64,000 bases of DNA from Candidatus Latescibacterota bacterium (GCA_965223905.1 CBDCXV010000011.1:992001-1056000); one strand, 5' to 3'; shown: positions 50,161 through 64,000, numbered from the stretch's first letter. The notes: generated by a model from the letters alone, not told the origin. A program made the numbers and translations.

Positions 50161-51084
50161 TTACGCGCGCATGCCCAGCAGGGCCTCGACCTCCGGGCCC
50201 GGGGGAATCTGGGCGGCCGGGTGCCGGACGACGTTGGCCCCGGCGATGCAGGCCGCCTCCAGGCAGCGCTCCGGCGCCGCCCCGAGCAGGATGCCGGCCG
50301 CCAGCACGCCGCTGAAGGCGTCCCCGGCGCCGACGACGTCGGCGACCTCGACCTCGAGACCCGGGTGGGAGTGCACCTCGCCGGCGGCGTAGAGGTCGGC
50401 GCCTCGCTCCCCCTTGGTAAGGGCGACCATCTCCAGGCCGTAGCGGTCCATGAGATCAGGCACCGTCCCGACCTCAGCCAAGCCGGCGACGATCTCGAAC
50501 TCCTCGTCGGTCAGCTTGAGGATCGTCGTTTCCTGAAGCAGCGGCTCGAGCAGGTCGCCGGTGTAGTAGCCTTCGCGCAGGTTGACGTCGTAGAAGCGGT
50601 GGCGCGGCCCCAGGGCGAGGAGCCGGCCCAGGGCGCGGCGGTTCGCCTCCCGGCGCTGGGCCACGGTGCCGAAGTAGACCAGCTCCGGCACCGGGTCCGG
50701 GATGCGCGCCAGGTCGATGTGGTCCCACGCGGAGTCGTTGATCCGGAACTCCGGCTCCCCGCCGACGATGCGGACGTCGACGGTGCCGGTCGGCTCCGGG
50801 CGCTCGATGATCCAGGAGGTGTCGACCCCGGCCGCGGCGAGGAACTCCCTGATCTCCGCGCCCAGCTCGTCGCGGCCGACGGCGCTGACGATGGCGGTCG
50901 GGATGCCGAGGGTGCCTAGGTACCAGGCGACGTTGAGCGATCCGCCGCCGATGGCGCGGTGGTCCTCGAAGAAGTCGACCAGGGTCTCGCCGAAGGAAAA
51001 AGCGATGGGCGCGGGAGCCGGATCAGAACCCCCGTTGGTAATCAGCTCTTTTGTCAGTGGGTAGCAACTCTGCTCGGAATACAT
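50161..51084 (-). CDS. PfkB family carbohydrate kinase (fructokinase-like); start uncertain
   Basis: FGETLVD, GGGSLNVA, DVNLR, TKGERG, DVVGAGDAF. Confidence 0.85.
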   Translation of the reverse strand: MYSEQSCYPLTKELITNGGSDPAPAPIAFSFGETLVDFFEDHRAIGGGSLNVAWYLGTLGIPTAIVSAVGRDELGAEIREFLAAAGVDTSWIIERPEPTGTVDVRIVGGEPEFRINDSAWDHIDLARIPDPVPELVYFGTVAQRREANRRALGRLLALGPRHRFYDVNLREGYYTGDLLEPLLQETTILKLTDEEFEIVAGLAEVGTVPDLMDRYGLEMVALTKGERGADLYAAGEVHSHPGLEVEVADVVGAGDAFSGVLAAGILLGAAPERCLEAACIAGANVVRHPAAQIPPGPEVEALLGMRA

Positions 51085-51157
51085 GGACGGAGATCGGGAG
51101 ACAGACAGTTATTAATTCGCTGAAAGGTAAAGATTGGCGGCTCGATCTGCCTTTTCC

Positions 51158-51819
51158 TCAATAAATTCCAAGAACACCTGTCCTGGCTATAGCCCTCCCA
51201 ACGGATCCATAGCTACCAGTCTGCCACAACATTACAACGGAAAGTATGTTCTCAACTCCATCATTCACTGCAACTATTACTTGCATACTGTCCAGACCTG
51301 AGAAGCAAGTTTGATCCTCGGCGAAAGGGACAATTTCGGGGAATTCGATTCGCCAAACTACAGAATCCGCGTGTGCTATTTTCCCAAGGTAATTAATTGA
51401 TCCTAAAGCATATTGATCCTAAAGCATGTGGAATGTGTTCGATATAATCGAATTCTAAATTATCTAAGATAGGAAGTTTACTACTTTCTGGTCGAAGAAT
51501 CTTCGATATAATCAGTGGATGATTTCCGTCGGAATATGATATCGTGGCCTATAAAGCTGCCAGATTTCACCATTTTCAAATAAGTTTGTCCAGATTTTTC
51601 GCGAGATTTCCAATAAAATTTGTCTCCAATTTGACTTATCACACAAGTGAATTCTTCGACTTCTTCTAGAGAGAGTCCTTCTCTACTATCCATCCCTAAA
51701 AAATTCGTCTTCACTCTCACTTCCGGATGCCCTACAAATACGATCACTTTATCCTGCGTAAAAACCGTAGAAGGAAGAAAAATAAAAATTAAAACGATTT
51801 TCAGGTGATCACAATACAT
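51158..51819 (-). pseudogene. AT-rich degraded gene for a secreted hypothetical protein
   Basis: ORF 51481-51819 has a signal-like N-terminus. Open reading continues in shifted frames (KILRPESSKLPILDNLEFDYIEH...ALGSINYLGK...GIY*), broken by a 16-bp tandem duplication at 51396-51427. Confidence 0.45.
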
Positions 51820-51881
51820 GACAATCTCCTTCGGCTAGTGCCCATTACGTCTCTCCAAAAGTAGCTGAAATCGGGCATGGC

Positions 51882-51951
51882 ACCGGGGGTGATTTCAATA
51901 TGTAGATCCAAGGTTTCCGTTGTCATTTCAAATTACCTCGTTGCAGGGGCC
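51882..51951 (-). repeat. Diverged copy of the DUF433 gene 5' end and RBS
   Basis: About 61/70 identical to 58660-58729; encodes MTTETLDLHIEITPG versus MTTETLNQHIEITPG. Confidence 0.85.
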
Positions 51952-52077
51952 ACTCTCTTTGAGATGACTGGAGTATCAGAAGAAACCAAGATTCTACTTC
52001 CGGAAAAACTGCACCGCCTCTGTCCGTCCGGTCGAAAACTGGGCCATGGTTTATGTTATCAAGTACTCCGACGAGGT

Positions 52078-52353
52078 CTATGTCCTCTCCGTCAGCCTTC
52101 CGGACAGGTATTTATGAATTACGCTCGACAACAGCGTCTGATACGGGATACCCTCCTCACGCGCTCGCGCATGGGCTAGATTGAAGTCGCGTTCGGTGAC
52201 CCGCAGGTTGACCCGTCGAGTCTTGTTGAAGGTGTTGCGGGCAGCTTGACGCGCTGTCTCAATTTCATCTTCAGCGCCATCAACCCGGCGCAGGTCGCCT
52301 CGCTCGAACTGCTCCAGGATCTCCTGCTCTTCGGGATTAAGTTGGCCGCTCAC
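52078..52353 (-). CDS. RHH/CopG-like antitoxin partner of the BrnT-like toxin
   Basis: EEQEILEQFERG...KTRRVNLRV...AREEGIPYQTLLSSVIHKY; GTGA overlap with the toxin. Confidence 0.8.
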   Translation of the reverse strand: MSGQLNPEEQEILEQFERGDLRRVDGAEDEIETARQAARNTFNKTRRVNLRVTERDFNLAHARAREEGIPYQTLLSSVIHKYLSGRLTERT

Positions 52354-52652
52354 GATGATCGCCTCCTCTGATAGTCCCGCGTCGCCTTCCGGCTGGGGAT
52401 AATTGTCTTCAGGAACCTCGTGCCGTCAGCGCCAATCACGAACGGCACGAGGTGGAGGTACCGTTCGATGTCCACGACGTAGATCATCTGTCCCGGATAC
52501 CGCTCCTGATTTGGGTGTTCCAACACGTCCACAAGACCGCCTCGCTCGATCGCAGAGACGACGCGCTCGAATGAGACTCCCCGCTGCTCAGCGAGTTGTC
52601 GGTTCTTCTCCAGGTTCCAATCGAAGCCGGCAGTCACGTTTCCGATCTTCAT
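52350..52652 (-). CDS. BrnT-like (RelE fold) toxin
   Basis: FDWNLEKN...RGVSFE...HPNQERYPGQ...LVPFV...FLKTIIPSRKAT; start uncertain (52637, 52652 or 52673). Confidence 0.8.
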   Translation of the reverse strand: MKIGNVTAGFDWNLEKNRQLAEQRGVSFERVVSAIERGGLVDVLEHPNQERYPGQMIYVVDIERYLHLVPFVIGADGTRFLKTIIPSRKATRDYQRRRSS

Positions 52653-52862
52653 CCATTGTGTGCATTTTGTCAACAGCCTTGGGCCCCGGAGGTCCGCATC
52701 CCAACCGGGTCAACCCTGGGGTGGAGCACATTATTCATTATCATTCAGCCGGATCATCAGCCGGTCATCAACAGAAGTGGAAACCGGCCCGGAAATCTCG
52801 GGCTCAAGACAGGTGATCGCGTCATCGTCAACCCCATGGCAACCCGGTAAAGGAGACGTTCC

Positions 52863-53708
52863 ATGTCAGATGAGAGCGGTGCGAAATCCGCGGAGACAGT
52901 TCGACAACAGGTCAACGTCTTTGCTCCGACATGTCTCGATATCTGGCTGAACGAGCCCAGGAACGCTCCCGAAAGCAGGGCACCCGCCAACCTCCTGCGC
53001 CTGTGGTTTCCCGAATCGATCATGGCCTATGACTCCAATGACAATCTGCTCTGGGAGTACACGTTCGAAACGCGGAGTGCCTCGTGGCGGTACGTGAACC
53101 AGTCGATCGGCGACATGAAGAGCGGGCGGGCGATCCGCAAAGTCCTCGAAAGCGTCGACACCGCCGATGGACTCGCCCTTGTCGCCTGCAAAGCCCGGTG
53201 GCGGGAAACCGATATCGACCTCACCCTGAGAATCACCAATGTCGGTCCGATCGCATGGTCGCGCCTGGAAACCAGCATCTGCCTCCAGCGTCCCGCGGCA
53301 CCGGACTACCTGGACGAAGCCGATACCCGGACGTATCTGGTCAGCGACGAGGGATTCGTCGCCAGTGCGGAGCTCGAGTTCCCCCCGCGTCGCAGGATGG
53401 TGTATGCCTGGGTGGGTGAAGAGCTTCCCGTGAGGAAGGGAGCCGGGCGCCGGCTGGTGGATCCCGCCCTTTTCGTGGTCTCAAAAGACGGGCGCTATGT
53501 GCTCGGGTATGCCTGGCAGCAGACGCGGCGGCTCTTTCTCAACCGGGCCGGATGCGTCAAATGCCTTCATTCCGACCCCGAATTCGGCCCTTCCGAGCCT
53601 CAGCACCAGCAGCAGCGACAGGGTATCGTATTCGTGAACGAGGGGACGCTCGAAGATGCGTACCGGCGCTACTGCGCGTGGAACGACAGGAGCGACCCGC
53701 CGACATAG
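52863..53708 (+). CDS. Hypothetical protein
   Basis: AAGGAG RBS; 281-aa ORF followed closely by the amidase. Confidence 0.65.
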   Translation: MSDESGAKSAETVRQQVNVFAPTCLDIWLNEPRNAPESRAPANLLRLWFPESIMAYDSNDNLLWEYTFETRSASWRYVNQSIGDMKSGRAIRKVLESVDTADGLALVACKARWRETDIDLTLRITNVGPIAWSRLETSICLQRPAAPDYLDEADTRTYLVSDEGFVASAELEFPPRRRMVYAWVGEELPVRKGAGRRLVDPALFVVSKDGRYVLGYAWQQTRRLFLNRAGCVKCLHSDPEFGPSEPQHQQQRQGIVFVNEGTLEDAYRRYCAWNDRSDPPT

Positions 53709-53724: not shown

Positions 53725-55149
53725 ATGGCGGACGAACGGCTGGCATACGAACCGGCGACGGAATTGCTGAAGCTGATCGCGACGAAACAGGTCTCTCCCG
53801 TCGAGCTGGCGGAAATGTTCTTCGACCGTATAGCCCGTCTCGACCCGCGGATCGACTCCTTCCTCCTGGTGACCCGGGACCTTGCGTTGAAGCAGGCGCA
53901 CGCGGCGGAGGACGCCGTGATGCGGGGGGACAAGCTCGGCGCGCTGCACGGCCTGCCGGTTCCCATCAAGGACACGCAGATGACCGCGGGCGTGCGGACG
54001 ACCATGGGGTCCGTCGTGCACGAGGACCGGGTACCCGAGCGGAACGCCGCCGTCGTCGAGCGCGTCCTGAACGCCGGGGCGGTGATGCTGGGCAAGACCA
54101 ACGTGCCGGAGTTCGGAATGGTGGGCACGTGCGAAAACTCCCTGGGTGTGCTGGGCAGCAACCCCTGGGATACCGACCGGACCCCCGGAGGGTCGAGCGG
54201 CGGAGCCGCGGCGGCCGTGGCTGCATGCCTGTGCCCGGCGGCAACCGGAAGCGACGGCGGCGGATCGCTGCGGATACCGGCCAACTTCTGCGGCATCTAC
54301 GCCATCAAGCCGACGCAGGGTCGAGTGTCTGGTTACACCGGACTCGGCGGACCTCCGCTGCCGAACATCTTCTCCCAGTCCGGCCCGTTGACGCGGACGG
54401 TTGGCGACGCGGGGCTGCTGCTCCAGGTCATGGCCGGATTCGACCGCCGAGACCAGGCCTCCATCCGGCAGACTCCGCCCGACTTCATGGCGGCGACCGA
54501 GCGGGATATCGACGGACTTCGGATCGGTTGGAGCGCCGATTTCGGGTTCGCACCGGTCTTTCCCGAGGTCGTCGAGGTCACCTGCAGGGCCGCGATGGTA
54601 TTCGAGGAGCTTGGCTGCGCCGTCGAGGAGATGGACATGGTTCTCCCCGAGCCGTACGACTCGTTCGGGCCAGTCCAGGCGGCGGGTTCGTACAACAGCC
54701 TTGCACAGTACCTGGAAGAGTACGGCGACCGGATGACGGAGTTCGCGCGCTTCTATATCGAGATGGGGTCCAGGGTAACGACCGGCGACTACCTACGCGC
54801 CGAAGGGCGCATTGCCGAGCTGAAGGCCACGTTCGACGACGCCTTCGAGACGTACGATCTCATCATGTCGCCCGTGTCCTGCTTCCCCGCCTTCCCGAAC
54901 GAGACCTTCCCGGGCAGCATCACCGGGAGATCGTCGTTTCCCGTGCAGTACTGGAACGGGACGTTCACGATGCACGCCAACGCCACCGGCAACCCGGCCG
55001 CGTCGGTGCCCGCGGGTTTCTCACCCGACGGCCTGCCTGTAGGACTTCAGATTATCGGGCGCAGATGCGACGAGGAGACGGTGCTCGCCGCATCTGCGGC
55101 GTTCGAGCGCGCGCGTCCGTGGACCGGGCGCAGGCCGCCCGTGTCCTGA
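53725..55149 (+). CDS. Amidase signature family enzyme
   Basis: GAGGAGG RBS; LHGLPVPIKD, GKTNVPEF, PGGSSGG, GSDGGGSLRIPA. Confidence 0.92.
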   Translation: MADERLAYEPATELLKLIATKQVSPVELAEMFFDRIARLDPRIDSFLLVTRDLALKQAHAAEDAVMRGDKLGALHGLPVPIKDTQMTAGVRTTMGSVVHEDRVPERNAAVVERVLNAGAVMLGKTNVPEFGMVGTCENSLGVLGSNPWDTDRTPGGSSGGAAAAVAACLCPAATGSDGGGSLRIPANFCGIYAIKPTQGRVSGYTGLGGPPLPNIFSQSGPLTRTVGDAGLLLQVMAGFDRRDQASIRQTPPDFMAATERDIDGLRIGWSADFGFAPVFPEVVEVTCRAAMVFEELGCAVEEMDMVLPEPYDSFGPVQAAGSYNSLAQYLEEYGDRMTEFARFYIEMGSRVTTGDYLRAEGRIAELKATFDDAFETYDLIMSPVSCFPAFPNETFPGSITGRSSFPVQYWNGTFTMHANATGNPAASVPAGFSPDGLPVGLQIIGRRCDEETVLAASAAFERARPWTGRRPPVS

Positions 55150-55206
55150 GGCGTTGACACTCGGCCATGGGAGGAGCCTGCGCGCTTCCCTTTGCCCGCC
55201 TTGACC

Positions 55207-55584
55207 TCACCGCCGGTGGGCATCGATCTGGCGCGCGACCTCGAGCGCAAACCGGCGCGCGACGTCCAACAAGCTGCGCAACTCATCCCCCGTCGGGGCG
55301 ACCTCGTACGGGTGGTGGTGACAGGTACGACTCAGATCGGACCACGCGGCGAAGGTCTCGTGCGCCAGGTCGCGGTCCCTCAGGTAGACTGTAAGGCACA
55401 GCAGTTGCGCGCGCCCGCTGCAGCGCTCCAGGCCCGGCTCACGCAGGGCCCAGTATTGCCGCAGTGCTTCCTCGATTGCGTGTCGACCGAGAACCGCTAC
55501 GACCCGCGGCCAGCCGTGCGCGGCGCTGCTACGCTCGGTTCCCGCCAGCGCGTCCGCCGCTTCGAGAATTTCGACGGGTGTCAT
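55207..55584 (-). CDS. Small helical HEPN-like protein
   Basis: 125 aa; LGRHAIEEAL and LSRTCHHHPYE motifs; 22 bp downstream of the SMC-like ATPase. Confidence 0.55.
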   Translation of the reverse strand: MTPVEILEAADALAGTERSSAAHGWPRVVAVLGRHAIEEALRQYWALREPGLERCSGRAQLLCLTVYLRDRDLAHETFAAWSDLSRTCHHHPYEVAPTGDELRSLLDVARRFALEVARQIDAHRR

Positions 55585-55606
55585 TGGCGCTTACTACTTG
55601 CTACTG

Positions 55607-58081
55607 CTAATGGTTGCCCAGCCATCTCGTCAGACGTTCGGTCGAGCCAACCATCGACGAGATGTCCGGCAGGGTACCGTCGGCGCCCCCATGCGTTGCA
55701 CGGTTTGCCCATTTGACGGCATCGGCCCAAGCCCGGTCGGAACTGTTGATTCGGGCCAGCACCTCCCCTGCGCGCCCGACGTCGTCGAACAGAGCGAGCG
55801 CCAGTTTCTGCATCAGCGTACGCGCGTCGTTCAGCACCTCGTCCGTGTCGGCGTGCGGCTCACCGCGCCCGATACGCCGCCGACGGACGACTTCCGTGCA
55901 CGCCGCTTCGATGGCCAGACGGCAGAACAACGGTACGGCTCGCGCCGCAGCTCCCGACGGAAGATTGTCGGTATGCTGGAGCGCGCGGGCATCGCTCAGG
56001 TACTGAGTAACCGGGTCACTGATGCTTCGGCACGCCACCTCCGAGCCCGATTGTCGCGTAACTTCGATCACTTGTGCCGGAATCTGCAGCCGACGAACCG
56101 ATTCCGGGAGTCGCTCGTCGTGCGTAAAGACCACGACCTGCCGCTCTTCCCCTACCATGGAGAGTACGCGCGCCAGACCGTCAACCTTGCCCGGGTCCAT
56201 TGCCTGCACCGGATCGTCGATCACGACAAAGCCGAAGGGGGACTCTGGCAGCAGCACCCGCGGCAGGAACAGGCTCAGTGCAAGCGCGTGGATCTCCCCC
56301 TGACTCATCACGCCGAGTGCCTGACCGTCGGTTCCGTCGACGCTGACGTCCAGAACAAGGTGACGTCGGGTCGCGGCACCTTCGAGCTTCAGATGGTCGA
56401 GCCTTACGCTGCTGTTCTGCCTGAGCGACTCCCACACAGCCGCGGCCCCGTCCGCGATCGGACGAAATCGTTCGGCCCTGATCCGGTCGGTCTCCGAGTT
56501 GAGCCAATCCTCCGCGCGGCGCAGGTCGGGAACGGTCCCGGCCGCTCGCGCCGCGTCACGTGCTGCGGGCAGCCAACCGCGCAAGGTAGCGACGAGCGGA
56601 CGCCAAGCTTCCTCCATGCGTTCCAACGCGGCGGCGGCCTGCTCTCGAAGCGAGTCCGCGGCGGCGGCGAGATTGTGGTGCTCCGCTTCCAGGTGTTCGA
56701 TCAGGAGGTCGTCTGCTATGTCGTGCGGGAGATTTGCCCAGCGTTCCCAGGCTCCCAGCAGTCCGGTCGTGTCGACCCCGGCCGTGTCGTCACGCCCCAG
56801 TATTCTCGGCGGCCCGGTCAGCAGGGCCTGTGCATTGCGGCGCGCACCGGTGAGCGCCCGCTGAGCCTCGTCCGCGGCGGCCGCCTCCGTACGCAAACGC
56901 CGAACTTCCGCTTCGGTCCGCGAACGCCATGAGCCGGTCAACTCACCGGAGCCGCAGACCGGGCATGGCTGATCTCCATGCGTCGCGTGTAAGGCAAGTG
57001 AGCGGTCAAGAAGATCGGCGATCTGCCGGGCGCGGCCGGCATCGGTCTGCTCGGCGGCCCGCGCCGCTTCTACTGCCGCGCGCAACTTTGCCGCCACAGC
57101 CTCTACTTCTTCGGCGCCCGGAACCGCAAGGGCGGCAAGTCCGCGTAGCAGGGCGATCACGCCATCGCCCTCCGGTTCGACTGCGCCTTCCAGGACCAAC
57201 TCGACGGCGTCGAGATCCCACGTGCCAACCCTCGGCTTGCTGATCGCCTCCGCACAGGTCCGCGCCCGTTCATCGTCGAGTTCTTCGAACTGGGAGAACC
57301 ACTCGCGCCGTTCGTTCTCCGCTCCGCGAACCTGTTTGTCCCGCTCGAGTCTTCGCTCGCGCAGCCGCTGGCGCGCGTCGACCAGCACCTCGAGACCCAA
57401 GGCGGCCGACATCATATCGTACAGCTCGGTCGGTCGGTAGTCGGGGATTGATCCCAGTTCGTTGTAGGGGAGAAACGGGCGATAGGTCTTGATGACCTCG
57501 TCCCAGCCGAGCGCGGCGCGGGCATTGTCTTCCTGGACGCCGCCGACACTGTCGGCTCCGGCACCCAAATCCGCGGCGGGAGACCATTCCCGTCGTACGG
57601 TAAGCGGCTGTCGCCGGCCCTCGACCGAAAGCGTCGCCTCGATGGCCACCTGCCCCGTCCAGTGCAGGTTGCGCCACCCCTCCTTCCAGACCGCCGATTT
57701 GTCCTCCCACCGGCGGTTCTGGCCCGTCAGCAACAGCTCCAGCGCTTCGGCGAAGCTCGATTTGCCGCTACCGTTGCGACCCACAACCAGCGTAAGGCCG
57801 GGACCCGGGGTAATCCGCAGGTCGCAAACGGGGCCGATGCCACGGAATCCCTGGACAGAAATGATATCGAGGTACGCACGTCCCGCCGACGCGTGAACTG
57901 GTTCAGTCTCCGCAGCCGATGGTGCCTCCGAATCGCCGGCGGCCTCGAACAGGGCCCGTTCCAGCGCCGCGTCTCCCTCAAGTGCCGCGAGCACCAACAA
58001 CCCAGCCGCAACATCAAGCTCTTCGTCCGCATCCACCCGTGCGCGGACCTGAGCGGTCAGTGCGCTATAGATATTCGACAT
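55607..58081 (-). CDS. Rad50/SMC-like ABC ATPase with zinc hook and C-terminal HEPN-like domain (RloC-like architecture)
   Basis: GFRGIG, Walker A GRNGSGKS, coiled coil with CPVC, signature MSQGE, Walker B VIDDPVQAMD, FTHD, then about 130 extra aa with CRLAIE and WANRATH. Confidence 0.8.
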   Translation of the reverse strand: MSNIYSALTAQVRARVDADEELDVAAGLLVLAALEGDAALERALFEAAGDSEAPSAAETEPVHASAGRAYLDIISVQGFRGIGPVCDLRITPGPGLTLVVGRNGSGKSSFAEALELLLTGQNRRWEDKSAVWKEGWRNLHWTGQVAIEATLSVEGRRQPLTVRREWSPAADLGAGADSVGGVQEDNARAALGWDEVIKTYRPFLPYNELGSIPDYRPTELYDMMSAALGLEVLVDARQRLRERRLERDKQVRGAENERREWFSQFEELDDERARTCAEAISKPRVGTWDLDAVELVLEGAVEPEGDGVIALLRGLAALAVPGAEEVEAVAAKLRAAVEAARAAEQTDAGRARQIADLLDRSLALHATHGDQPCPVCGSGELTGSWRSRTEAEVRRLRTEAAAADEAQRALTGARRNAQALLTGPPRILGRDDTAGVDTTGLLGAWERWANLPHDIADDLLIEHLEAEHHNLAAAADSLREQAAAALERMEEAWRPLVATLRGWLPAARDAARAAGTVPDLRRAEDWLNSETDRIRAERFRPIADGAAAVWESLRQNSSVRLDHLKLEGAATRRHLVLDVSVDGTDGQALGVMSQGEIHALALSLFLPRVLLPESPFGFVVIDDPVQAMDPGKVDGLARVLSMVGEERQVVVFTHDERLPESVRRLQIPAQVIEVTRQSGSEVACRSISDPVTQYLSDARALQHTDNLPSGAAARAVPLFCRLAIEAACTEVVRRRRIGRGEPHADTDEVLNDARTLMQKLALALFDDVGRAGEVLARINSSDRAWADAVKWANRATHGGADGTLPDISSMVGSTERLTRWLGNH

Positions 58082-58394
58082 GCGCCACCATTTCTTCCGC
58101 TTCCAATACCTGATATATCAACATCAAACCACGAACGATCTCACCAGTCGTATTTTCTTGAGAAGAATAAACAATTCCTTGATGGTCAGCTCCCGCAGTT
58201 GCAAGATGAAGGAAGTCATCATCCAGAGTGAAGATGACCCGTCCTTCTTCCTTGGCCCTCCTTAACAGTTCTTCGTCAGACTCTCCAAGCGTTCCCGCTT
58301 CAGGAACAGTCTGCACATCTACACCTCTTCGACGTAGCCCCATCACAACAGCTTTTGAGACATTCTCATCCGTGTAAAACTTAATCTTCGCCAT
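58065..58394 (-). CDS. DUF5615 PIN-like toxin (VapC45-like)
   Basis: KFYTDENV, LRRRGVDV, SDEELL, IFTLDDDF, HQGIV. Confidence 0.85.
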   Translation of the reverse strand: MAKIKFYTDENVSKAVVMGLRRRGVDVQTVPEAGTLGESDEELLRRAKEEGRVIFTLDDDFLHLATAGADHQGIVYSSQENTTGEIVRGLMLIYQVLEAEEMVAHVEYL

Positions 58395-58704
58395 GTTGAG
58401 CAAGTTCTTGAAGCTTTTTATGAAGCTTCGAGGAAGACCGTTGGCGTAACGAATTAACAAATGCTCGACTCTCTTCGAGCGACTGGTCGATCTCCTCCCG
58501 GTGATCGAAATAGTAAGCCAACGCGGCATATACATCCGCCAAGGTTATGTCGTAGTCGCTGGCAATTTCGTCGGCGGTTTTTCCCATGCGCTCGTGCCAG
58601 ATGACGATGTTCTCCACGGTGATTCTGTGACCGGCAATGCGAGGTCTTCCGCCTGATATACCGGGGGTGATCTCGATATGTTGATTCAAGGTTTCCGTTG
58701 TCAT
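58381..58704 (-). CDS. DUF433 domain antitoxin
   Basis: IEITPGISGGRPRIAGHRITV...ITLADVYAALAYY. Confidence 0.9.
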   Translation of the reverse strand: MTTETLNQHIEITPGISGGRPRIAGHRITVENIVIWHERMGKTADEIASDYDITLADVYAALAYYFDHREEIDQSLEESRAFVNSLRQRSSSKLHKKLQELAQHGED

Positions 58705-58733
58705 TTCAAATCTCCTCTTTGCTTGGGCCCAGG

Positions 58734-59057
58734 TTATTGATCTTTCAGAGCCGCCATAAAACCTGCTCCGCTAGTGCATGTTCCCCCCGTGCTCGAAGCG
58801 AGTGCCCCGTCGTGGATCATTATGGTCCAGCGAAGCCCCTGGAACGACGCCACGAGATCTTTGAACAACATGTCCAGGCGTTCCAGTTCTTCGAAGACCT
58901 CGGCTCCAAATGCGTCCGGCCCCCCATTTTTCTGCAATGACTCCCGGATCTCGCGCAGTCCTTCTCTTTCCTTGCGGAAGTACTCCTCGCTTTGCTCCAG
59001 CGCAGGAACGGCTATGTCGTCCGGGTCCATCTCAAGGCCCGCAGGAAGGAACCTCAT
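58734..59057 (-). CDS. Hypothetical acidic helical protein coupled to hsdR
   Basis: ATG overlaps the hsdR stop (ATGA); 107 aa. Confidence 0.55.
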   Translation of the reverse strand: MRFLPAGLEMDPDDIAVPALEQSEEYFRKEREGLREIRESLQKNGGPDAFGAEVFEELERLDMLFKDLVASFQGLRWTIMIHDGALASSTGGTCTSGAGFMAALKDQ

Positions 59058-62000
59058 CCCGCGGCCGCCTGCTCGTAGGCGAGGCCGAACACCGTATCGG
59101 CCATCCAGCGCTTGAAGCCCGGGTCGTCCATGAATTTCTTGAACAGCTGGGCGTCGTCCTTCATCACCGAATTCATGACCCGGATCAGCACCTTGTCCCC
59201 CTCGATACGGGTGTTCTCTCGATCCGAGTTCTGCCGGGCATTGCGGAAGGCGGTGTCCGCGGCCACCCGGGTGGGAATGGTCTCGGTGATGAGCTGTCCT
59301 ACCCGGTCGGCGTCGTCCCAGTCGGTGGCCCAGTGCTCGTTGAACGTCCTGAGGATGTTCGACAGCCGATCCAGCTCCGGCTCGGTGAGGCTGCCTCCGC
59401 CGGCAGCCGGCACCGGATCGACCTCGGCGTCCTCGTCCGCCAGCAGGATCTTCTGCATCGCCTGCTTCTCGACCCGGTAGCTGTCGAGGTCGATGGCGTC
59501 GAGGATGCCCTTCGACAGATCCTCTTCCTCGGGGGCCGGCAGCTTCGGGATCAGGAGGTTCAGGAAGATCGAGCGCTTCTCCCACCCGGGGTCGTTGTAG
59601 GGAAGCACGGACGACAGAAAGGCATAGGTGCGCGCGAATCCCTTGGCGTTCCCCTTGAACCGCACCTGTCCGTCCTCGTCCAGATCGCTCTTGTAGACGG
59701 CCACGCAGGCGTCGAGGATCGGGTCGAGCTGATCGCGCTCGGCCCCTCCCAGATAGCGCCGCACCAAATCGTCGACCTGCTCTTCGGAATAGACCTGGGC
59801 CCCGTCGAGGTCCGCCTGCAGGTCGTGCAGCTTGTCGGGGTCGGTCTCGTCGGCCAGGATGGTGGCGCGGTAGTAGTCGGCGAACGCCTCACTCATGGTG
59901 TCGGCGTCGTTGAAGAAATCGAGCACGAACACGTCGTGCTTCCTGGGATGAGCCCGGTTGAGGCGGGACAGGGTCTGCACCGCCTTGATGCCGGACAGGG
60001 TCTTGTCGACGTACATCGTGTGCAGCAGCGGTTCGTCGTACCCGGTCTGGAACTTGTCGGCGCAGACCAGGAAGCGGTAGGGATCCTCCTGGAACTGCGC
60101 GGCGATCTTTACCGAAGGGAAGCCGTTCAGCGACGCCTCGCTGACCTTTTCCCCGCCGAACTCGTGCTCACCGGAGAAGGCGACGAGAGCCTGGTAGCGG
60201 CTCTTGCGCTGCTGCAGGTAGTCGCGGATCGCGTGGTAGTACTGGATCGCCCGCTCGATGCCGTTGGTCACCACCATCGCCCGCGCCGCGCCGCCGATCT
60301 TGTTCTGCGCCAGCACCTGGTCGTGGAAGTGGTCGACCATGATCTCGGCCTTGAGCCCGATCGCGTGGCCGCTCCCCTCGACGAAGCGGCGCAGCTTCTT
60401 CTGCGCCTTCCTGACGTCGAACTCCGGGTCCTCCTCTACCGTCTTGGCGAGCTTGTAGTAGCTGTTCACCGGCATGTAGTGGGAGAGCACGTCGAGGATG
60501 AACCCCTCCTGGATCGCCTGCTTCATGGTGTAGCTGTGGAAGGCGTGGTGCCTGATTGTGCCGTCGGCCTGCGGGTCCGGGGCGCCGAAGATCTCCAGGG
60601 TCTTGTTCTTGGGGGTGGCGGTGAAGGCGAAGTAGCTGGCGTTGGGCAGCAGCTTGCGCGACTCCATCAGGCGGTTGATGCGGTCCTCGAAGGTCTCCCC
60701 CTCCTCCTCTTCCCCTGCCTCGGAGAGCGCCCGCGCCATGGCCGCGCTGGTTTGGCCGCCCTGGCTGGAGTGGGCCTCGTCGATGATGATGGCGAAGCTG
60801 CGCCGGCGCTGCTCGTTGCCGATCTCGTCGAGGATGAACGGGAACTTCTGGATCGTCGAGATGATGATCTTCTTGCCGCTCTCGATGAAGCGGCGCAGGT
60901 CGCCGGAGCGGTCGGCGTGCCCCATCGTCGCCGACACCTGCGAATACTGCCGGATCGTGTCGCTGATCTGCTTGTCGAGGATGAGGCGGTCGGTGACGAC
61001 GATGATGGAGTCGAAGGCCGGGGCGCCGTCCCGGGCCAGCCCGATCAGCTGGTGGGCCAGCCAGGCGATGGAGTTGCTCTTGCCGCTTCCGGCCGAGTGC
61101 TGGATCAGGTAACGACCGCCCGCGCCGTGGTCACCTGCGTCGGCCAGCAGGCGGCGCACCACGTCGAGCTGATGGTAGCGCGGCCAGACCTGGGTCCGCT
61201 TCCTCCTGCCCGTCTTCTCGTCCTTCGACTCCACCACCTGGGCGTAGTTCTCCAGGATGTCGGTCAGGCTCTCCCGGCTCAGCACCTCCCGCCACAGGTA
61301 GCCGGCCTTGATGCCGCTGGCGTTGGGCGGGTTGCCGGCGCCGTCGTTCCAGCCGCGGTTGAAGGGAAGGAACCAGGAGGCCTTGCCGCTGAGGTGGGTG
61401 CAGAACTGGACCTCGCTCTCGTCCACCGCGAAGTGGGCGACGCAGCGGCCCAGCTCGAACAGCTTCTCGCGCGGGTTGCGGTCGCGCTGATACTGCTGGA
61501 CGGCGTCGTCGACGGTCTGCTTGGTGAGGCTGTTCTTCAGCTCGAAGGTGAAGACCGGCAGGCCGTTGACGAACAGCCCGATGTCGAGCGCCCGCTGGGT
61601 CTCGTCGCGGCTGTAGCGCAGCTGGCGGGTGACCGTGAAGCGGTTCTGCCTGAAGCGCTCCTGCGCTTCCGGGTTGTCGGCCGAGGGGGTGCCGTAGAAC
61701 AGGTCGAGGTCGTGCGCCCCGTGCCGGATGCCGTGGCGCAGCACGTCGATGCTGCCGCGCTTGCTGATCTCACCCTGGAGCCGGGCCAGGAACCGCCGGC
61801 GCGTAGGGCCGGCCTCGGGCAAGGCGAGGGATTCTGCTGCTTCGGGCTGGGTGGCGCGCAGGAAGGCGGAGAGCTGGGCCAGGTCGACGCAGTACTCGCG
61901 GTCGTAGTCGTGGTAGTTGCCGCCGGCCCAACCGACTCCGCCGTAGCTGGCAGGGGGCTCGCCCGCGGTGGGACCCGGGGGCGGGTCGCAGGGATGGCCG

Positions 62001-62065
62001 GCCAGCGCGCTGCAGATGAGGCGTTCGAGGCCGCGTTCGGAGGTGTCGGTGGTCCTAACGGTCAT
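59054..62065 (-). CDS. hsdR: Type I restriction endonuclease subunit R
   Basis: LDIGLFVNGLPVFTFELKN, QHSAGSGKS, DEAH, FTATP, QTGYDEP, TLSRLNR; GGAGG RBS. Confidence 0.95.
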   Translation of the reverse strand: MTVRTTDTSERGLERLICSALAGHPCDPPPGPTAGEPPASYGGVGWAGGNYHDYDREYCVDLAQLSAFLRATQPEAAESLALPEAGPTRRRFLARLQGEISKRGSIDVLRHGIRHGAHDLDLFYGTPSADNPEAQERFRQNRFTVTRQLRYSRDETQRALDIGLFVNGLPVFTFELKNSLTKQTVDDAVQQYQRDRNPREKLFELGRCVAHFAVDESEVQFCTHLSGKASWFLPFNRGWNDGAGNPPNASGIKAGYLWREVLSRESLTDILENYAQVVESKDEKTGRRKRTQVWPRYHQLDVVRRLLADAGDHGAGGRYLIQHSAGSGKSNSIAWLAHQLIGLARDGAPAFDSIIVVTDRLILDKQISDTIRQYSQVSATMGHADRSGDLRRFIESGKKIIISTIQKFPFILDEIGNEQRRRSFAIIIDEAHSSQGGQTSAAMARALSEAGEEEEGETFEDRINRLMESRKLLPNASYFAFTATPKNKTLEIFGAPDPQADGTIRHHAFHSYTMKQAIQEGFILDVLSHYMPVNSYYKLAKTVEEDPEFDVRKAQKKLRRFVEGSGHAIGLKAEIMVDHFHDQVLAQNKIGGAARAMVVTNGIERAIQYYHAIRDYLQQRKSRYQALVAFSGEHEFGGEKVSEASLNGFPSVKIAAQFQEDPYRFLVCADKFQTGYDEPLLHTMYVDKTLSGIKAVQTLSRLNRAHPRKHDVFVLDFFNDADTMSEAFADYYRATILADETDPDKLHDLQADLDGAQVYSEEQVDDLVRRYLGGAERDQLDPILDACVAVYKSDLDEDGQVRFKGNAKGFARTYAFLSSVLPYNDPGWEKRSIFLNLLIPKLPAPEEEDLSKGILDAIDLDSYRVEKQAMQKILLADEDAEVDPVPAAGGGSLTEPELDRLSNILRTFNEHWATDWDDADRVGQLITETIPTRVAADTAFRNARQNSDRENTRIEGDKVLIRVMNSVMKDDAQLFKKFMDDPGFKRWMADTVFGLAYEQAAAG

Positions 62066-62156
62066 ACCTGCCTCCTCCGACCAGACCATTCAATCACGTG
62101 TAAGTCCGTCGTAGTCCTGCCGGTTGGACCAGTCCCTTTTAGAGTGCTGGGACTTT

Positions 62157-63245
62157 CTACATTGCAAAGCAGAAGTCGTGCTCCTGGAACTGTGACACCT
62201 TCGCGCCGTGAAACGAGTTCGCCTGCGTTTTGTCGACTTCGGAAGTGACCCCATCGTCGACAAGCTGTACCTCGCGGCCAAGACCTCCCGTCAAGGAACG
62301 CAGCAATCCCTCTCTCAACTCGGGTTTATTCAATCGGCGCCCTCCGATCCGAATGACCATCCTCGCCCGTCCTGCCAATAGAGGTCCCAGTCCCGCCATG
62401 GACGCCTGGATGAATGTCCAGTAATTGTCCTTGTTGCGGTGTCGATCGTCTCCCCGCCCACGCAGCACCAACGGCTCCCCGTCGAGAAACCACAGCCGCA
62501 GCCACTGATCCTCGCGGTAGTTGGTGGTGTCGAGGTACGGCGGCGAGGTAATCACGTCGGTAACTCGACCTGTAAGGTCCGGGAACTTGCAGGCGGCCAG
62601 ACGAGCGTCGGTCTGAATCACCTTCGCGGATCCCTCCGGGGGAGGGGTCCGGAATCGGTAATCGAGCATCCCTTCGAGGATCTCGAAGACATCTCGCGGC
62701 GGCGGGGTATATCCGAATTGCCTCCACCATCGAACCGAATAGTCAGGCTTCGTGCTGATAGTGCGCGGCATGCGGTTGCTGAAGTAATTGGGGGAGCGGT
62801 GGGACTCTCCATGCAGCGCACCGAGACACAACGCCGCGATGAACCGGTCGTCCCTGCGGTTGCGCCAATCCAGAATGGATCGCAGATAACGCACCTGCAG
62901 CAGTGTGTCCCGGTGGAAGCAAAGGTCGAAGAACTCTCCTAACCTGCCCTGCCACCCCAAGTCGTCCGGCTCGTGGCATCCCTGCCTCAACTCGTTGAGT
63001 CGCGTCCTGACTTTCGAGAATCCAGGCGGGTTGCTCTTGGCTCCCGAGACGCAGACCGCCACCGGGTTCAGATCGCAGCCGGCCGCTGCCCGGCCCTGGA
63101 GCAGCGCTTGAAAAACAGTCGTTCCCCGCCCGCAGTACGGATCGAAGACAATCCCGTTGTACCGACTCGCCGCAAGATGCTTCTCCACAAAGCACTCCGG
63201 GAACATCGCGAAGTAGGGACAGATCGAGTGGAACCGGTGTCTCAT
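62157..63245 (-). CDS. DNA methyltransferase, N4-cytosine/N6-adenine type (motif I before SPPY)
   Basis: CPYFAMFP, VFDPYCGRGTT...GCDLNP (SAM binding), VITSPPY (catalytic). Confidence 0.82.
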   Translation of the reverse strand: MRHRFHSICPYFAMFPECFVEKHLAASRYNGIVFDPYCGRGTTVFQALLQGRAAAGCDLNPVAVCVSGAKSNPPGFSKVRTRLNELRQGCHEPDDLGWQGRLGEFFDLCFHRDTLLQVRYLRSILDWRNRRDDRFIAALCLGALHGESHRSPNYFSNRMPRTISTKPDYSVRWWRQFGYTPPPRDVFEILEGMLDYRFRTPPPEGSAKVIQTDARLAACKFPDLTGRVTDVITSPPYLDTTNYREDQWLRLWFLDGEPLVLRGRGDDRHRNKDNYWTFIQASMAGLGPLLAGRARMVIRIGGRRLNKPELREGLLRSLTGGLGREVQLVDDGVTSEVDKTQANSFHGAKVSQFQEHDFCFAM

Positions 63246-64000
63246 GCCGCTGCACTCGCCCGGTTGCGGTAGTCCGTGACCCAGCAGGCGGCCTCCACCA
63301 GCCGGTCGTACCCTTCGATGTTCACGCCGGTCACCACGAGCCGATCAGCCTCCTCGACACGACGGGGCACCCGCAGCCGGTGCAGCACGTTCCCCATCAC
63401 GCGAACATCGTCGATGAACTGATCGTCGGCCCTCGCGAATGGTACGATCATATAGATCATGAAGTCGGTCACCGGCTGGGTCCTGAACCATCGGCTCTTG
63501 AACGCATCCATATGCCCCTTGAGAGACTTCGACCAAGCGTTTTGGCCGGTTGCGACCTGCGCTGCGGCGAGAGGGAACCCCGGCAGCCCATCGGGTTGCG
63601 GACGGGCAGCGAAAACATCGATCTGATCGTCTTTTGGCTGCCGCGGGGCTCCGGTCTGCGGCTCCACCCCGCCGTCGCGGAGGATTTCCCAGATCTGTTC
63701 CAGCTTGTTGAGGAACCCCGACCCGCCGGGTCGGGGAAAGCCGAAAGACCATGCTTCCCCCTGAACCTCTGCGGCCAAAGCCGCCGTCGCGAAATATTGA
63801 AAGTACTCCCGCAATTTCCCCACCTCTGCACAATCGGGATGAAGACCCGAACCATCGAGCATCGGCGTGAAGGCCCGCAGGTTCGAAAGGACAAGGCTCA
63901 GGATGTACGCTGCCTGCCCGAACGATTCATCGTCCATCTCGTACCACAACAGGTTTCCGTCAGAATCAAGCCTGAAGGGATAAGCCGAGTCCAACGCGTC
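63242..64000 (-). CDS. Hypothetical protein, PD-(D/E)xK restriction-endonuclease-like (5' end outside the window)
   Basis: Frame is open to the window edge; KDDQIDVFA...AQVATG..W.K; ATGA coupling to the methylase. Confidence 0.5.
   Translation of the reverse strand, partial: DALDSAYPFRLDSDGNLLWYEMDDESFGQAAYILSLVLSNLRAFTPMLDGSGLHPDCAEVGKLREYFQYFATAALAAEVQGEAWSFGFPRPGGSGFLNKLEQIWEILRDGGVEPQTGAPRQPKDDQIDVFAARPQPDGLPGFPLAAAQVATGQNAWSKSLKGHMDAFKSRWFRTQPVTDFMIYMIVPFARADDQFIDDVRVMGNVLHRLRVPRRVEEADRLVVTGVNIEGYDRLVEAACWVTDYRNRASAAA

Follow-up and report, generated by a model that had tools for sequence, protein, structure and literature searches.

A zinc-hook ATPase with a C-terminal HEPN-fold domain and its free-standing HEPN-fold paralogue: an uncatalogued two-gene variant on the RloC theme

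Introduction

Among abortive-infection enzymes that act by cutting tRNA, RloC and PrrC are the classic examples. RloC, in the portions of the literature from which we cite it, is a Rad50-like zinc-hook ATPase with a C-terminal Arg-X3-Glu-X36-52-His motif (Davidov & Kaufmann 2008, PMC2610378); the substitutions R692A, E696A or H737A abolish its tRNase activity, and its zinc-hook mutants are hyperactive (PMC2610378). Hook and DNA-break-responsive ATPase are described together as an internal switch (Klaiman et al. 2012, PMC3458546). In PrrC and RloC, the nuclease domains have been classed as HEPN by Anantharaman et al. 2013 (PMC3710099), and HEPN RNases, according to the part of that survey cited here, act as dimers with their active sites at the interface. 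What follows concerns two adjacent genes at positions 55,207 to 58,081 of a 64,000-nucleotide (nt) stretch of DNA from Candidatus Latescibacterota bacterium (GCA_965223905.1, CBDCXV010000011.1:992001-1056000; the whole stretch is called the window below, and positions are counted from its first letter): one encodes a Rad50/SMC-like ATPase whose C-terminal tail has a HEPN fold, the next a small free-standing HEPN-fold protein that is distantly related to that tail.

The pair resembles RloC in several respects: 1) the ABC head is split, in both, by an insert with a CxxC hook, a coiled coil in RloC and presumably one here; 2) both carry a C-terminal helical domain of the nuclease type in the HEPN superfamily, with an R-x3-E...H triad; 3) the ATPase has 824 amino acids (aa) here and 804 aa in G. 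kaustophilus RloC; 4) both are sometimes restriction-linked and both are laterally spread. It differs in having a free HEPN paralogue as its second gene, where RloC is described as single-gene, and in the distance from the Glu to the triad His, which is 71 residues here and 36-52 in RloC. With PrrC it shares an ABC ATPase joined to a HEPN-type nuclease domain, the Arg-Glu-His triad, a partner-dependent logic and, in the window, a position just downstream of a type-I-like R subunit. PrrC, however, has neither coiled coil nor zinc hook; its partner, which silences it, is the EcoprrI type Ic restriction-modification (R-M) enzyme rather than a HEPN paralogue; and R-M linkage is not conserved in the ATPase-HEPN family considered here. 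A preliminary description of the locus, drawn from its sequence, had likened the large protein to RloC. The comparison is apt: R-x3-E...H is RloC's defining nuclease motif (PMC2610378, in the portion cited).

We regard the pair as an uncatalogued two-gene variant on the RloC theme. As to what it does, the evidence tips, modestly, toward a RloC/PrrC-like two-gene anti-phage RNase module. The free HEPN unit would pair with the fused one to form a pseudo-symmetric heterodimer whose RNase site(s) would be shared between the chains; the ATPase and its zinc hook would be the switch, as in RloC, silencing the nuclease until a DNA or phage cue arrives; and once the cue is sensed, tRNA or other RNA would be cleaved and translation would stop (abortive infection). 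From the interpretation in the preliminary description, the fold, the paralogy, the linkage and the uncatalogued status have all stood up, while the mechanism (RNase activity, DNA sensing, the trigger, the defence role and the binding of the two HEPN units to each other) is what we infer.

Two HEPN-fold units and their kinship

The features on which the argument turns are these:

55607 to 58081, minus strand, stop codon included: 824-aa Rad50/SMC-like ABC ATPase, which has a zinc hook and ends in a HEPN-fold domain
55610 to 56026, minus strand: C-terminal HEPN-fold domain of the ATPase, aa 686-824 (the tail)
55907 to 55921, minus strand: R721-x3-E725 of the tail
55691 to 55693, minus strand: H797 of the tail, 71 residues after E725, in N-x-G-x-H
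55207 to 55584, minus strand, stop codon included: free-standing 125-aa HEPN-fold paralogue (the small protein)
55471 to 55485, minus strand: R34-x3-E38 of the small protein
55318 to 55320, minus strand: H89 (small protein), which follows E38 by 50 residues and is the first His of C-H-H-H

That both units have a HEPN-like fold had been proposed from sequence motifs; structure prediction and structure comparison bear this out, the HEPN core being four helices arranged up and down. AlphaFold2 models both units with confidence: the predicted local distance difference test score (pLDDT) of the tail is 94.4 and that of the small protein 93.9. In a VIA-align structural search of 48,161 chains, the small protein finds 2hsb first (Z 14.9, root-mean-square deviation (rmsd) 2.1 Å, 113 of 125 residues aligned), and nearly all of its top 23 or so matches belong to the HEPN superfamily (Roquin, HepT, Csm6, DrrA, AbiA, LsoA); Foldseek also ranks HEPN domains first (sacsin 3o10, E 0.013; 2q00, template-modelling (TM) score 0.7), with 1wol, 2hsb, 1ufb and HepT toxins next. 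The top nine VIA-align matches of the tail are all HEPN, at Z 7.6-9.1 (2hsb: Z 9.1, rmsd 3.7 Å, 108 residues aligned), and are followed by Csm6, AbiA, HepS, LsoA, Csx1, Las1 and RnlA; its first Foldseek match is 2q00_B (E 0.18, probability 1.0).

Family models say much less. Alignments were built from related loci for the tail (A3, 43 sequences) and for the small protein (A4, 42 sequences). DUF4145 is alone among Pfam models in reaching the tail: the weak match (E 0.03) pairs residues 33-127 of the domain with profile positions 16-85 of 88, scores 14.8 bits where the cut-off is 23.1, and is made at E <=10 by just one of the 43 members. At that threshold Pfam otherwise yields scattered single matches to the 43 tail sequences. 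PADLOC yields, for these sequences, eight families with one member each, and the small protein matches no family of Pfam, PADLOC or NCBIfam. When the tail profile was searched against PDB sequences, the best match (E 0.093) was an unrelated chain. The ESM Atlas returns for the tail only "hypothetical protein" clusters at 0.91-0.92, and one cluster at 0.87 with AAA_13 on 13% of its members, which is a lead only. We assign the tail to HEPN because of the consistent HEPN matches taken together with the weak DUF4145 match and the kinship of the tail to the small protein.

That kinship is distant. BLASTP of the small protein against the ATPase finds no similarity (best E 16), and the "same layout" of motifs that had been read in the two proteins becomes visible only by profile comparison and in the fold: hhalign of A4 against A3 (63% probability, E 7e-5, 115 columns) pairs GRHAIE of the small protein with CRLAIE of the tail, and the C-H-H-H region with N-x-G-x-H. 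The motifs themselves lie where they had been placed (CRLAIE, aa 720-725, at 55907-55924 and WANRATH, aa 791-797, at 55691-55711 in the tail; GRHAIE, residues 33-38, and LSRTCHH, residues 84-90, in the small protein). Tail and small protein are distant HEPN-fold paralogues.

A shared Arg-Glu-His triad

Conservation of the triad was counted over the loci plus the window (81 tails, 75 small proteins). In the tail, R721 is retained in 81/81, E725 in 80/81 (one Asp) and H797 in 75/81: the His is replaced at five loci (L030, L035, L043, L049, L054), and a sixth copy (L069) ends before the position; of 120 database clusters, 9 are without the His as well. In the small protein, E38 and H89 are invariant in A4 and R34 is kept in at least 90% of its sequences; H89 is kept in 73 of the 75. 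The full triad is present in 74/81 tails and 70/75 small proteins. Both HEPN-fold units bear, at the level of sequence, an R-x3-E...H triad of the RloC/PrrC anticodon nuclease type.

Need such a triad mean catalysis? Both HEPN units might instead be binding or regulatory domains, like those of sacsin, MtlR or the classical MNT-associated HEPN proteins, in which case the ATPase would serve DNA maintenance or sense for an effector encoded elsewhere. The closest structures (2hsb, 1wol, 3o10) are indeed classical HEPN proteins whose role is either unknown or not that of a nuclease, conservation of the canonical Rx4-6H motif is only partial, and some HEPN families are without RNase activity, as the cited part of the survey notes (PMC3710099). 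We nevertheless consider a non-catalytic pair decidedly unlikely: both proteins keep an RloC-type triad from phylum to phylum, the surroundings of 38 loci include no other conserved effector, and the distribution is patchy and accessory rather than that of a housekeeping function.

Linkage of the two genes

A degenerate-pattern scan of species-representative genomes for relatives of the ATPase, of which there are at least 566 in genomes, left 80 loci that were kept for analysis. Their record titles name Acidobacteriota, Actinomycetota, Dormibacterota, Chloroflexota, Gemmatimonadota, Myxococcota, Spirochaetia and others; the ATPase family is found mainly in metagenome-assembled genomes of the first five. 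A hidden Markov model of the small protein finds the small gene in 74/80 of these loci, so that the co-conservation suggested for the pair is borne out. At the six others, five contigs stop about 125 nt or less past the ATPase gene (L036, L041, L044, L052, L070), and the sixth (L069) is an ATPase fragment. The small gene lies directly downstream of the ATPase gene, on the same strand, at 72 loci; at L072 it lies 709 nt downstream, and at L035 it is upstream and divergent. (The spacer at L072, 10446-11154, holds no convincing open reading frame (ORF) and is possibly an inserted element.) The search from the opposite side gives the same answer: wherever else the small gene occurs in the phylum (5/5 genomes), the ATPase tail is encoded just upstream of it.

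The two reading frames are also closely spaced. In 42 of 71 evaluable loci a candidate start of the small gene and the ATPase stop share 4 nt, in 6 they share 1 nt, and in 11 the start follows the stop within 30 nt; in the window the gap is 22 nt. The small protein is probably, in the usual case, translated by coupling to the ATPase gene. Its family comprises 1347 clusters at 50% identity (E <=1e-3; 958 at E <=1e-10), and it appears to be normally free-standing, because nearly all of the best 150 clusters are 107-165 aa long. Candidate natural fusions were considered and set aside: L030 and L049 are frameshifted ATPase genes that read on into the small gene, likely artefacts, and P0417 (485 aa; ATPase aa 549-752 plus the small domain) is likely a sequencing or gene-calling artefact or a pseudogene. 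Current annotation has for the large protein nothing more specific than "AAA family ATPase" or "RecF", and for its partner "hypothetical protein".

Could the large gene be an ordinary RloC orthologue that happens to have an unrelated small neighbour? Its length (~820 aa against 804 aa in G. kaustophilus) and its architecture would suit. A small gene that recurs at the frequency just given, in many phyla, and that is paralogous to the tail of the ATPase does not suit at all, and neither do the triad spacing and the behaviour of AAA_13, the Pfam model that we take to represent the RloC/PrrC family: it passes its cut-off in 1/9 relatives (39.9 bits), failing on the other eight and on the window protein, and it covers the ATPase part only, never the tail. 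This explanation is scarcely credible. We do not file the module as RloC because of the His spacing of 71, the failure of AAA_13 and the single-gene character of RloC. (PADLOC, run on three ATPase fragments, listed no model named RloC or PrrC; PADLOC 2.0 may include none.)

A composite active site?

The preliminary description had proposed that the fused and the free HEPN unit form a heterodimer. Indirect evidence in favor comes from paired residue losses in one clade and from a weak complex prediction. In L030, L043 and L054, which form one acidobacterial clade, H797 of the tail is replaced by E, R or V and R34 of the partner by G or L; R721/E725 and E38/H89 are retained. Nine database clusters of full-length ATPases (813-815 aa) likewise have C-R...E and no His. 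With the L043 small protein, 655 relatives were found, the best 120 of which were inspected at residues 34, 38 and 89: 106 of these are Leu34-Glu38-His89 and 9 are Arg-Glu-His, and residue 34 is L or I in 110. Judged from these alignments, the His-less/Leu34 clade is large and is not decaying. The loss of one Arg and one His on different chains fits the pattern that would be expected of a heterodimer with a shared, split site.

The predicted complex of tail and small protein scores 0.54 (runs 0.54, 0.56, 0.51), and the best of three controls 0.00; agreement of contacts between the runs is at least 100%, and the partner has a pLDDT of 84 or more. In the calibration of this score, the mark is reached by 58/80 solved complexes and by 2/110 mismatched pairs; scores of 0.60 or less are those of only 7 of the 80 solved complexes and of both mismatches. 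Solved HEPN dimers may prime the complex model, whose memory of them may contribute.

A more specific version of the module can be drawn from these observations: a widespread, unnamed anti-phage system in which the zinc-hook ATPase controls an asymmetric HEPN heterodimer with trans-composite sites, R721/E725 with H89 and R34/E38 with H797. The fused and the free HEPN unit would each donate part of two pseudo-symmetric sites (the R-x3-E of one chain, the His of the other), and the one large clade would have given up the second site (R34/E38 with H797) entirely. We hold this version tentatively, as a possibility that falls somewhat short of an even chance.

The same facts can be turned around. 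If the free HEPN unit were an inhibitor or antitoxin, it would be a decoy capping the fused HEPN domain and keeping it inactive; ATP-driven engagement of the heads would displace it, and two fused HEPN domains would then homodimerize into the active RNase. Linkage, paralogy and the weak support for a complex fit such a guard equally well, and tight translational coupling would ensure that it is produced together with what it guards. RloC-type nucleases are toxic and need silencing, and hook mutants are hyperactive (PMC2610378, in the portion cited); PrrC is silenced by a partner (PMC3710099, likewise). A pure decoy, however, would not need a near-invariant E38 and H89, and in the His-less clade a fused homodimer would be without the triad His, yet that clade is large, full-length and conserved. 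We rate the inhibitor model unlikely, while giving it real weight.

The ATPase

The RNase-module reading gives the large protein the part of a switch. Its recognizable elements, and the N-terminal extension before them, are:

57878 to 58081, minus strand: N-terminal extension, aa 1-68, before the ATPase head; matches no family
57758 to 57781, minus strand: Walker A GRNGSGKS, aa 101-108
56954 to 56965, minus strand: CPVC zinc hook, aa 373-376
56294 to 56308, minus strand: ABC signature MSQGE, aa 592-596
56210 to 56227, minus strand: Walker B/D-loop region VVIDDP, aa 619-624
56117 to 56128, minus strand: H-loop FTHD, aa 652-655

The motifs that had been quoted for this protein (GRNGSGKS, CPVC, MSQGE, IDDP at 621-624, and FTHD) are all in the translation. 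Across 66 aligned full-length proteins (65 loci and the window) identity is complete at G101, R102, N103, G104, K107 and S108 of Walker A, at C373, V375 and C376 of the hook (P374 in 64/66), at SQGE of the signature, at D622, D623 and P624, and at H654 and D655. To go by the alignment, the ATPase motifs are conserved beyond chance. CPVC sits midway between the halves of the head (Walker A at 101, signature at 592), as in Rad50, SbcC and RloC, and the hook insert has a weak match to the coiled-coil region of LmuB. In the N-terminal extension R15, D19, V30, A33, G36 and L40 are invariant in 16 aligned sequences.

On the 824-aa protein Pfam finds SMC_N (49.4 bits, cut-off 40) over aa 71-664, plus AAA_23 and AAA_21, and no family on aa 665-824; NCBIfam gives no match above its cut-offs. 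The best PADLOC matches, mad3 (E 9e-19), LmuB (4e-16) and PDC-S06 (3e-13), are partial and lie in the ATPase head.

One relative departs from the common plan at its C-terminus: the 996-aa ATPase-HEPN protein of L035 (7471-10952) continues there into an adenylate/guanylate-cyclase domain (Guanylate_cyc, E 2e-5), and neither HEPN unit of that locus keeps its His, as if the output had been swapped. In one actinobacterial clade (L021, and L011 and L033 by their large ORFs) a protein of ~870-980 aa follows the pair; Pfam, run on the one at L021 (10821-13439, directly after the pair), shows a cyclase-AAA_22-TPR protein.

Other described systems

The C-terminal HEPN fusions of ABC ATPases APECO1_4465 and ERFG_01251 (PMC3710099) lie in mobile or defence contexts, as the present pair does; they differ, by their description in the part of that survey cited, in that zinc hook and free HEPN paralogue go unmentioned there. 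DUF4145 is itself a HEPN family (PMC3710099, same part). As Pfam PF13643 it is found fused to restriction enzymes and helicases, and the tail differs from it in falling below the gathering threshold, as the bit scores above record. DUF4145 and the tail presumably share the layout of an R..E in helix 1 and a late ..N..H.

Lamassu (LmuB ATPase with an LmuA effector, often also LmuC) and the PADLOC candidate PDC-S06 are likewise built on an SMC-like ABC ATPase that contains a long insert, and PDC-S06 models are ~850 aa long with ~145 aa beyond the matched C-lobe. The matches to both are confined, however, to the ATPase head (for PDC-S06 two short stretches, in head and C-lobe, the latter at profile 618-712 of 858, with the tail unmatched), there is no gene of the LmuA or LmuC type here, and no PADLOC model matches either the HEPN tail or the small protein. 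As for SbcCD, the absence of an adjacent SbcD/Mre11 gene, which had been remarked on, is confirmed: there is none in the window, and a Metallophos gene lies within two genes of the pair in 1/38 loci, paired there with its own SbcC. The module is not an SbcCD, Lamassu or DUF4145 member.

The pair had been put forward as belonging to no named system, and this has held: no PADLOC 2.0, Pfam or NCBIfam model describes either HEPN part or the pair. In the portions of the literature searched, which include a BREX survey and an embedded-defence preprint, the pair of ATPase-HEPN and free HEPN is undescribed; an earlier mention is possible.

The locus and its surroundings

In the window the two genes stand at the end of a co-oriented minus-strand run that is closed by a convergent amidase gene at 55149. 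Upstream of them lie:

62160 to 63245, minus strand: DNA methylase-like ORF, N6_N4_Mtase
59054 to 62089, minus strand: type-I-like restriction R subunit, HSDR_N, SWI2_SNF2, T1R_D3-like
58381 to 58704, minus strand: DUF433 gene
58065 to about 58394, minus strand: DUF5615/PIN_10-like gene (ORF as listed 58065-58535, 156 aa)

The ATPase gene, with its start at 58081, shares 17 nt with the end of the PIN-like ORF, in agreement with the overlap reported before. (A technical note: the PIN-like ORF probably starts at Met48 (~58394) rather than at its listed start, because the Pfam match begins at aa 52.) The DUF433 and DUF5615/PIN-like genes form a pair of the toxin-antitoxin (TA) type; in the close relative L002, a DUF433 gene is on the other side of its pair. 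The "hsdR" gene is only type-I-like (TIGR00348 198.6 bits, cut-off 284.55), the gene upstream of it has an N6_N4_Mtase (PF01555) segment and no classical HsdM domain, and the ORF beyond that (63245-64000, minus strand) has no Pfam match; the restriction system of the window may not be a standard type I. Farther off, at 51000-53000, is a patch of low GC content (0.42-0.57 against about 0.70), parts of which vary between same-genus genomes. It contains a weak BrnT-like toxin ORF (52350-52673; E 2e-4, below cut-off), a partner ORF of 91 aa that overlaps it (52078-52353), and a third ORF (51481-51819, 112 aa), which is AT-rich and of no family.

Comparison with related genomes places the pair in a variable slot that borders a restriction island, itself variable; it is so placed because of what genomes G103 and G104 lack, the sparse distribution in the phylum, and the lower G+C content at third codon positions (GC3). 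The pair occurs in 6/168 genomes of the phylum (the window genome and 5/10 genomes of one other genus) and in 0/2 same-genus genomes. Genome G103 follows the window collinearly (90-95% identity) as far as 55167 and resumes at 58425; where the window has 55168-58424, with small gene, ATPase gene and PIN-like gene, it carries two other small ORFs (101 and 193 aa), and it has the restriction genes. Genome G104 is without the whole block at ~55152-74241 (~19 kb; contig L096). Variation at this one chromosomal spot is nested. GC3 is 0.74 and 0.80 in the pair and 0.83-0.96 in the flanking genes (the amidase being lowest, at 0.83). (In G103 a segment of 307 nt, 58739-59045, lies on the opposite flank of the DUF433 gene.)

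That the pair belongs to a run downstream of hsdR and the PIN gene, as the preliminary description had it, is correct for the window and does not extend to the family: the adjacency is local to the window genome. The PIN/DUF433 pair and hsdR were rejected as members of the module, not being conserved beside relatives; hsdR and DUF433 were rejected also on the ground that G103 keeps both without the pair. Nor does any third gene recur among 147 neighbour ORFs of 38 loci (147 of the 152 picked, two per side, with the three longest among those left out). At least one TA, restriction or R-M, BREX, GmrSD, SIR2, HNH, helicase, integrase or transposase neighbour is present in 22/38 loci, as a raw count. 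The pair appears to be a horizontally mobile, self-contained two-gene module.

Such surroundings raise the question of whether the pair is simply selfish, an addiction or TA-like module with no part in phage defence that persists since loss of one partner would be lethal. It has two genes with overlapping reading frames, it is often found among PIN, RES and MazE-type TA genes, and it is an insertion relative to close relatives. But an 824-aa zinc-hook ATPase with fully conserved motifs would be an elaborate sensor in a plain TA system, the closest characterized analogues, RloC and PrrC, act in phage exclusion (in the portions of the literature cited), and addiction and defence are not mutually exclusive roles. 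Addiction as the whole explanation seems to us very unlikely, though less so than the orthologue explanation discussed above.

Weighing the RNase-module reading

The reading of the pair as a two-gene anti-phage RNase module has to be set against a number of observations that weigh the other way. With regard to the fold, the Foldseek E-values already given (0.013 for the small protein, 0.18 for the tail) are weak, and the best Z of the tail, 9.1, is below ~13, a range that, according to the tool, helical bundles can reach. With regard to the triad, the canonical HEPN Rx4-6H is only partly present: R86-x4-H91 occurs in 25/75 small proteins, that of the window included, and tail position 790 (x6 before H797) is R in 22/81 and K in 25/81 (K790 in the window); the Glu-His spacing of the tail lies outside RloC's 36-52, though that of the small protein, at 50, does not; and AAA_13 reaches 19 bits on the window protein, against its cut-off of 36. 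With regard to the heterodimer, the paired residue loss is a single evolutionary event that would also fit lost catalysis in both chains, and the complex score is weak by the tool's own calibration. With regard to context, 16/38 loci have only housekeeping genes or genes of unknown function as neighbours, and the 22 noted above come with no background rate for comparison; and a scan of 55000-59200 for promoters and terminators found no promoter-like site, and two terminator-like sites where 3.1 were expected.

Implications

Why should a two-gene relative of RloC matter? In the literature searched, the way in which the RloC/PrrC nuclease is assembled and switched is structurally unsettled. The pair offers, in nature, what would be a split nuclease: two separable HEPN halves, together with a clade in which one half-site has been ablated naturally, so that the question of a composite site becomes directly testable. 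The family is abundant in soil phyla that are poorly covered by defence catalogues, and recognizing it would add a two-gene entry to the tools of defence-system annotation. If the proposal is true, this would be the first RloC-type nuclease with its active site split over two polypeptides, and the split site would show how the RloC/PrrC triad is assembled.

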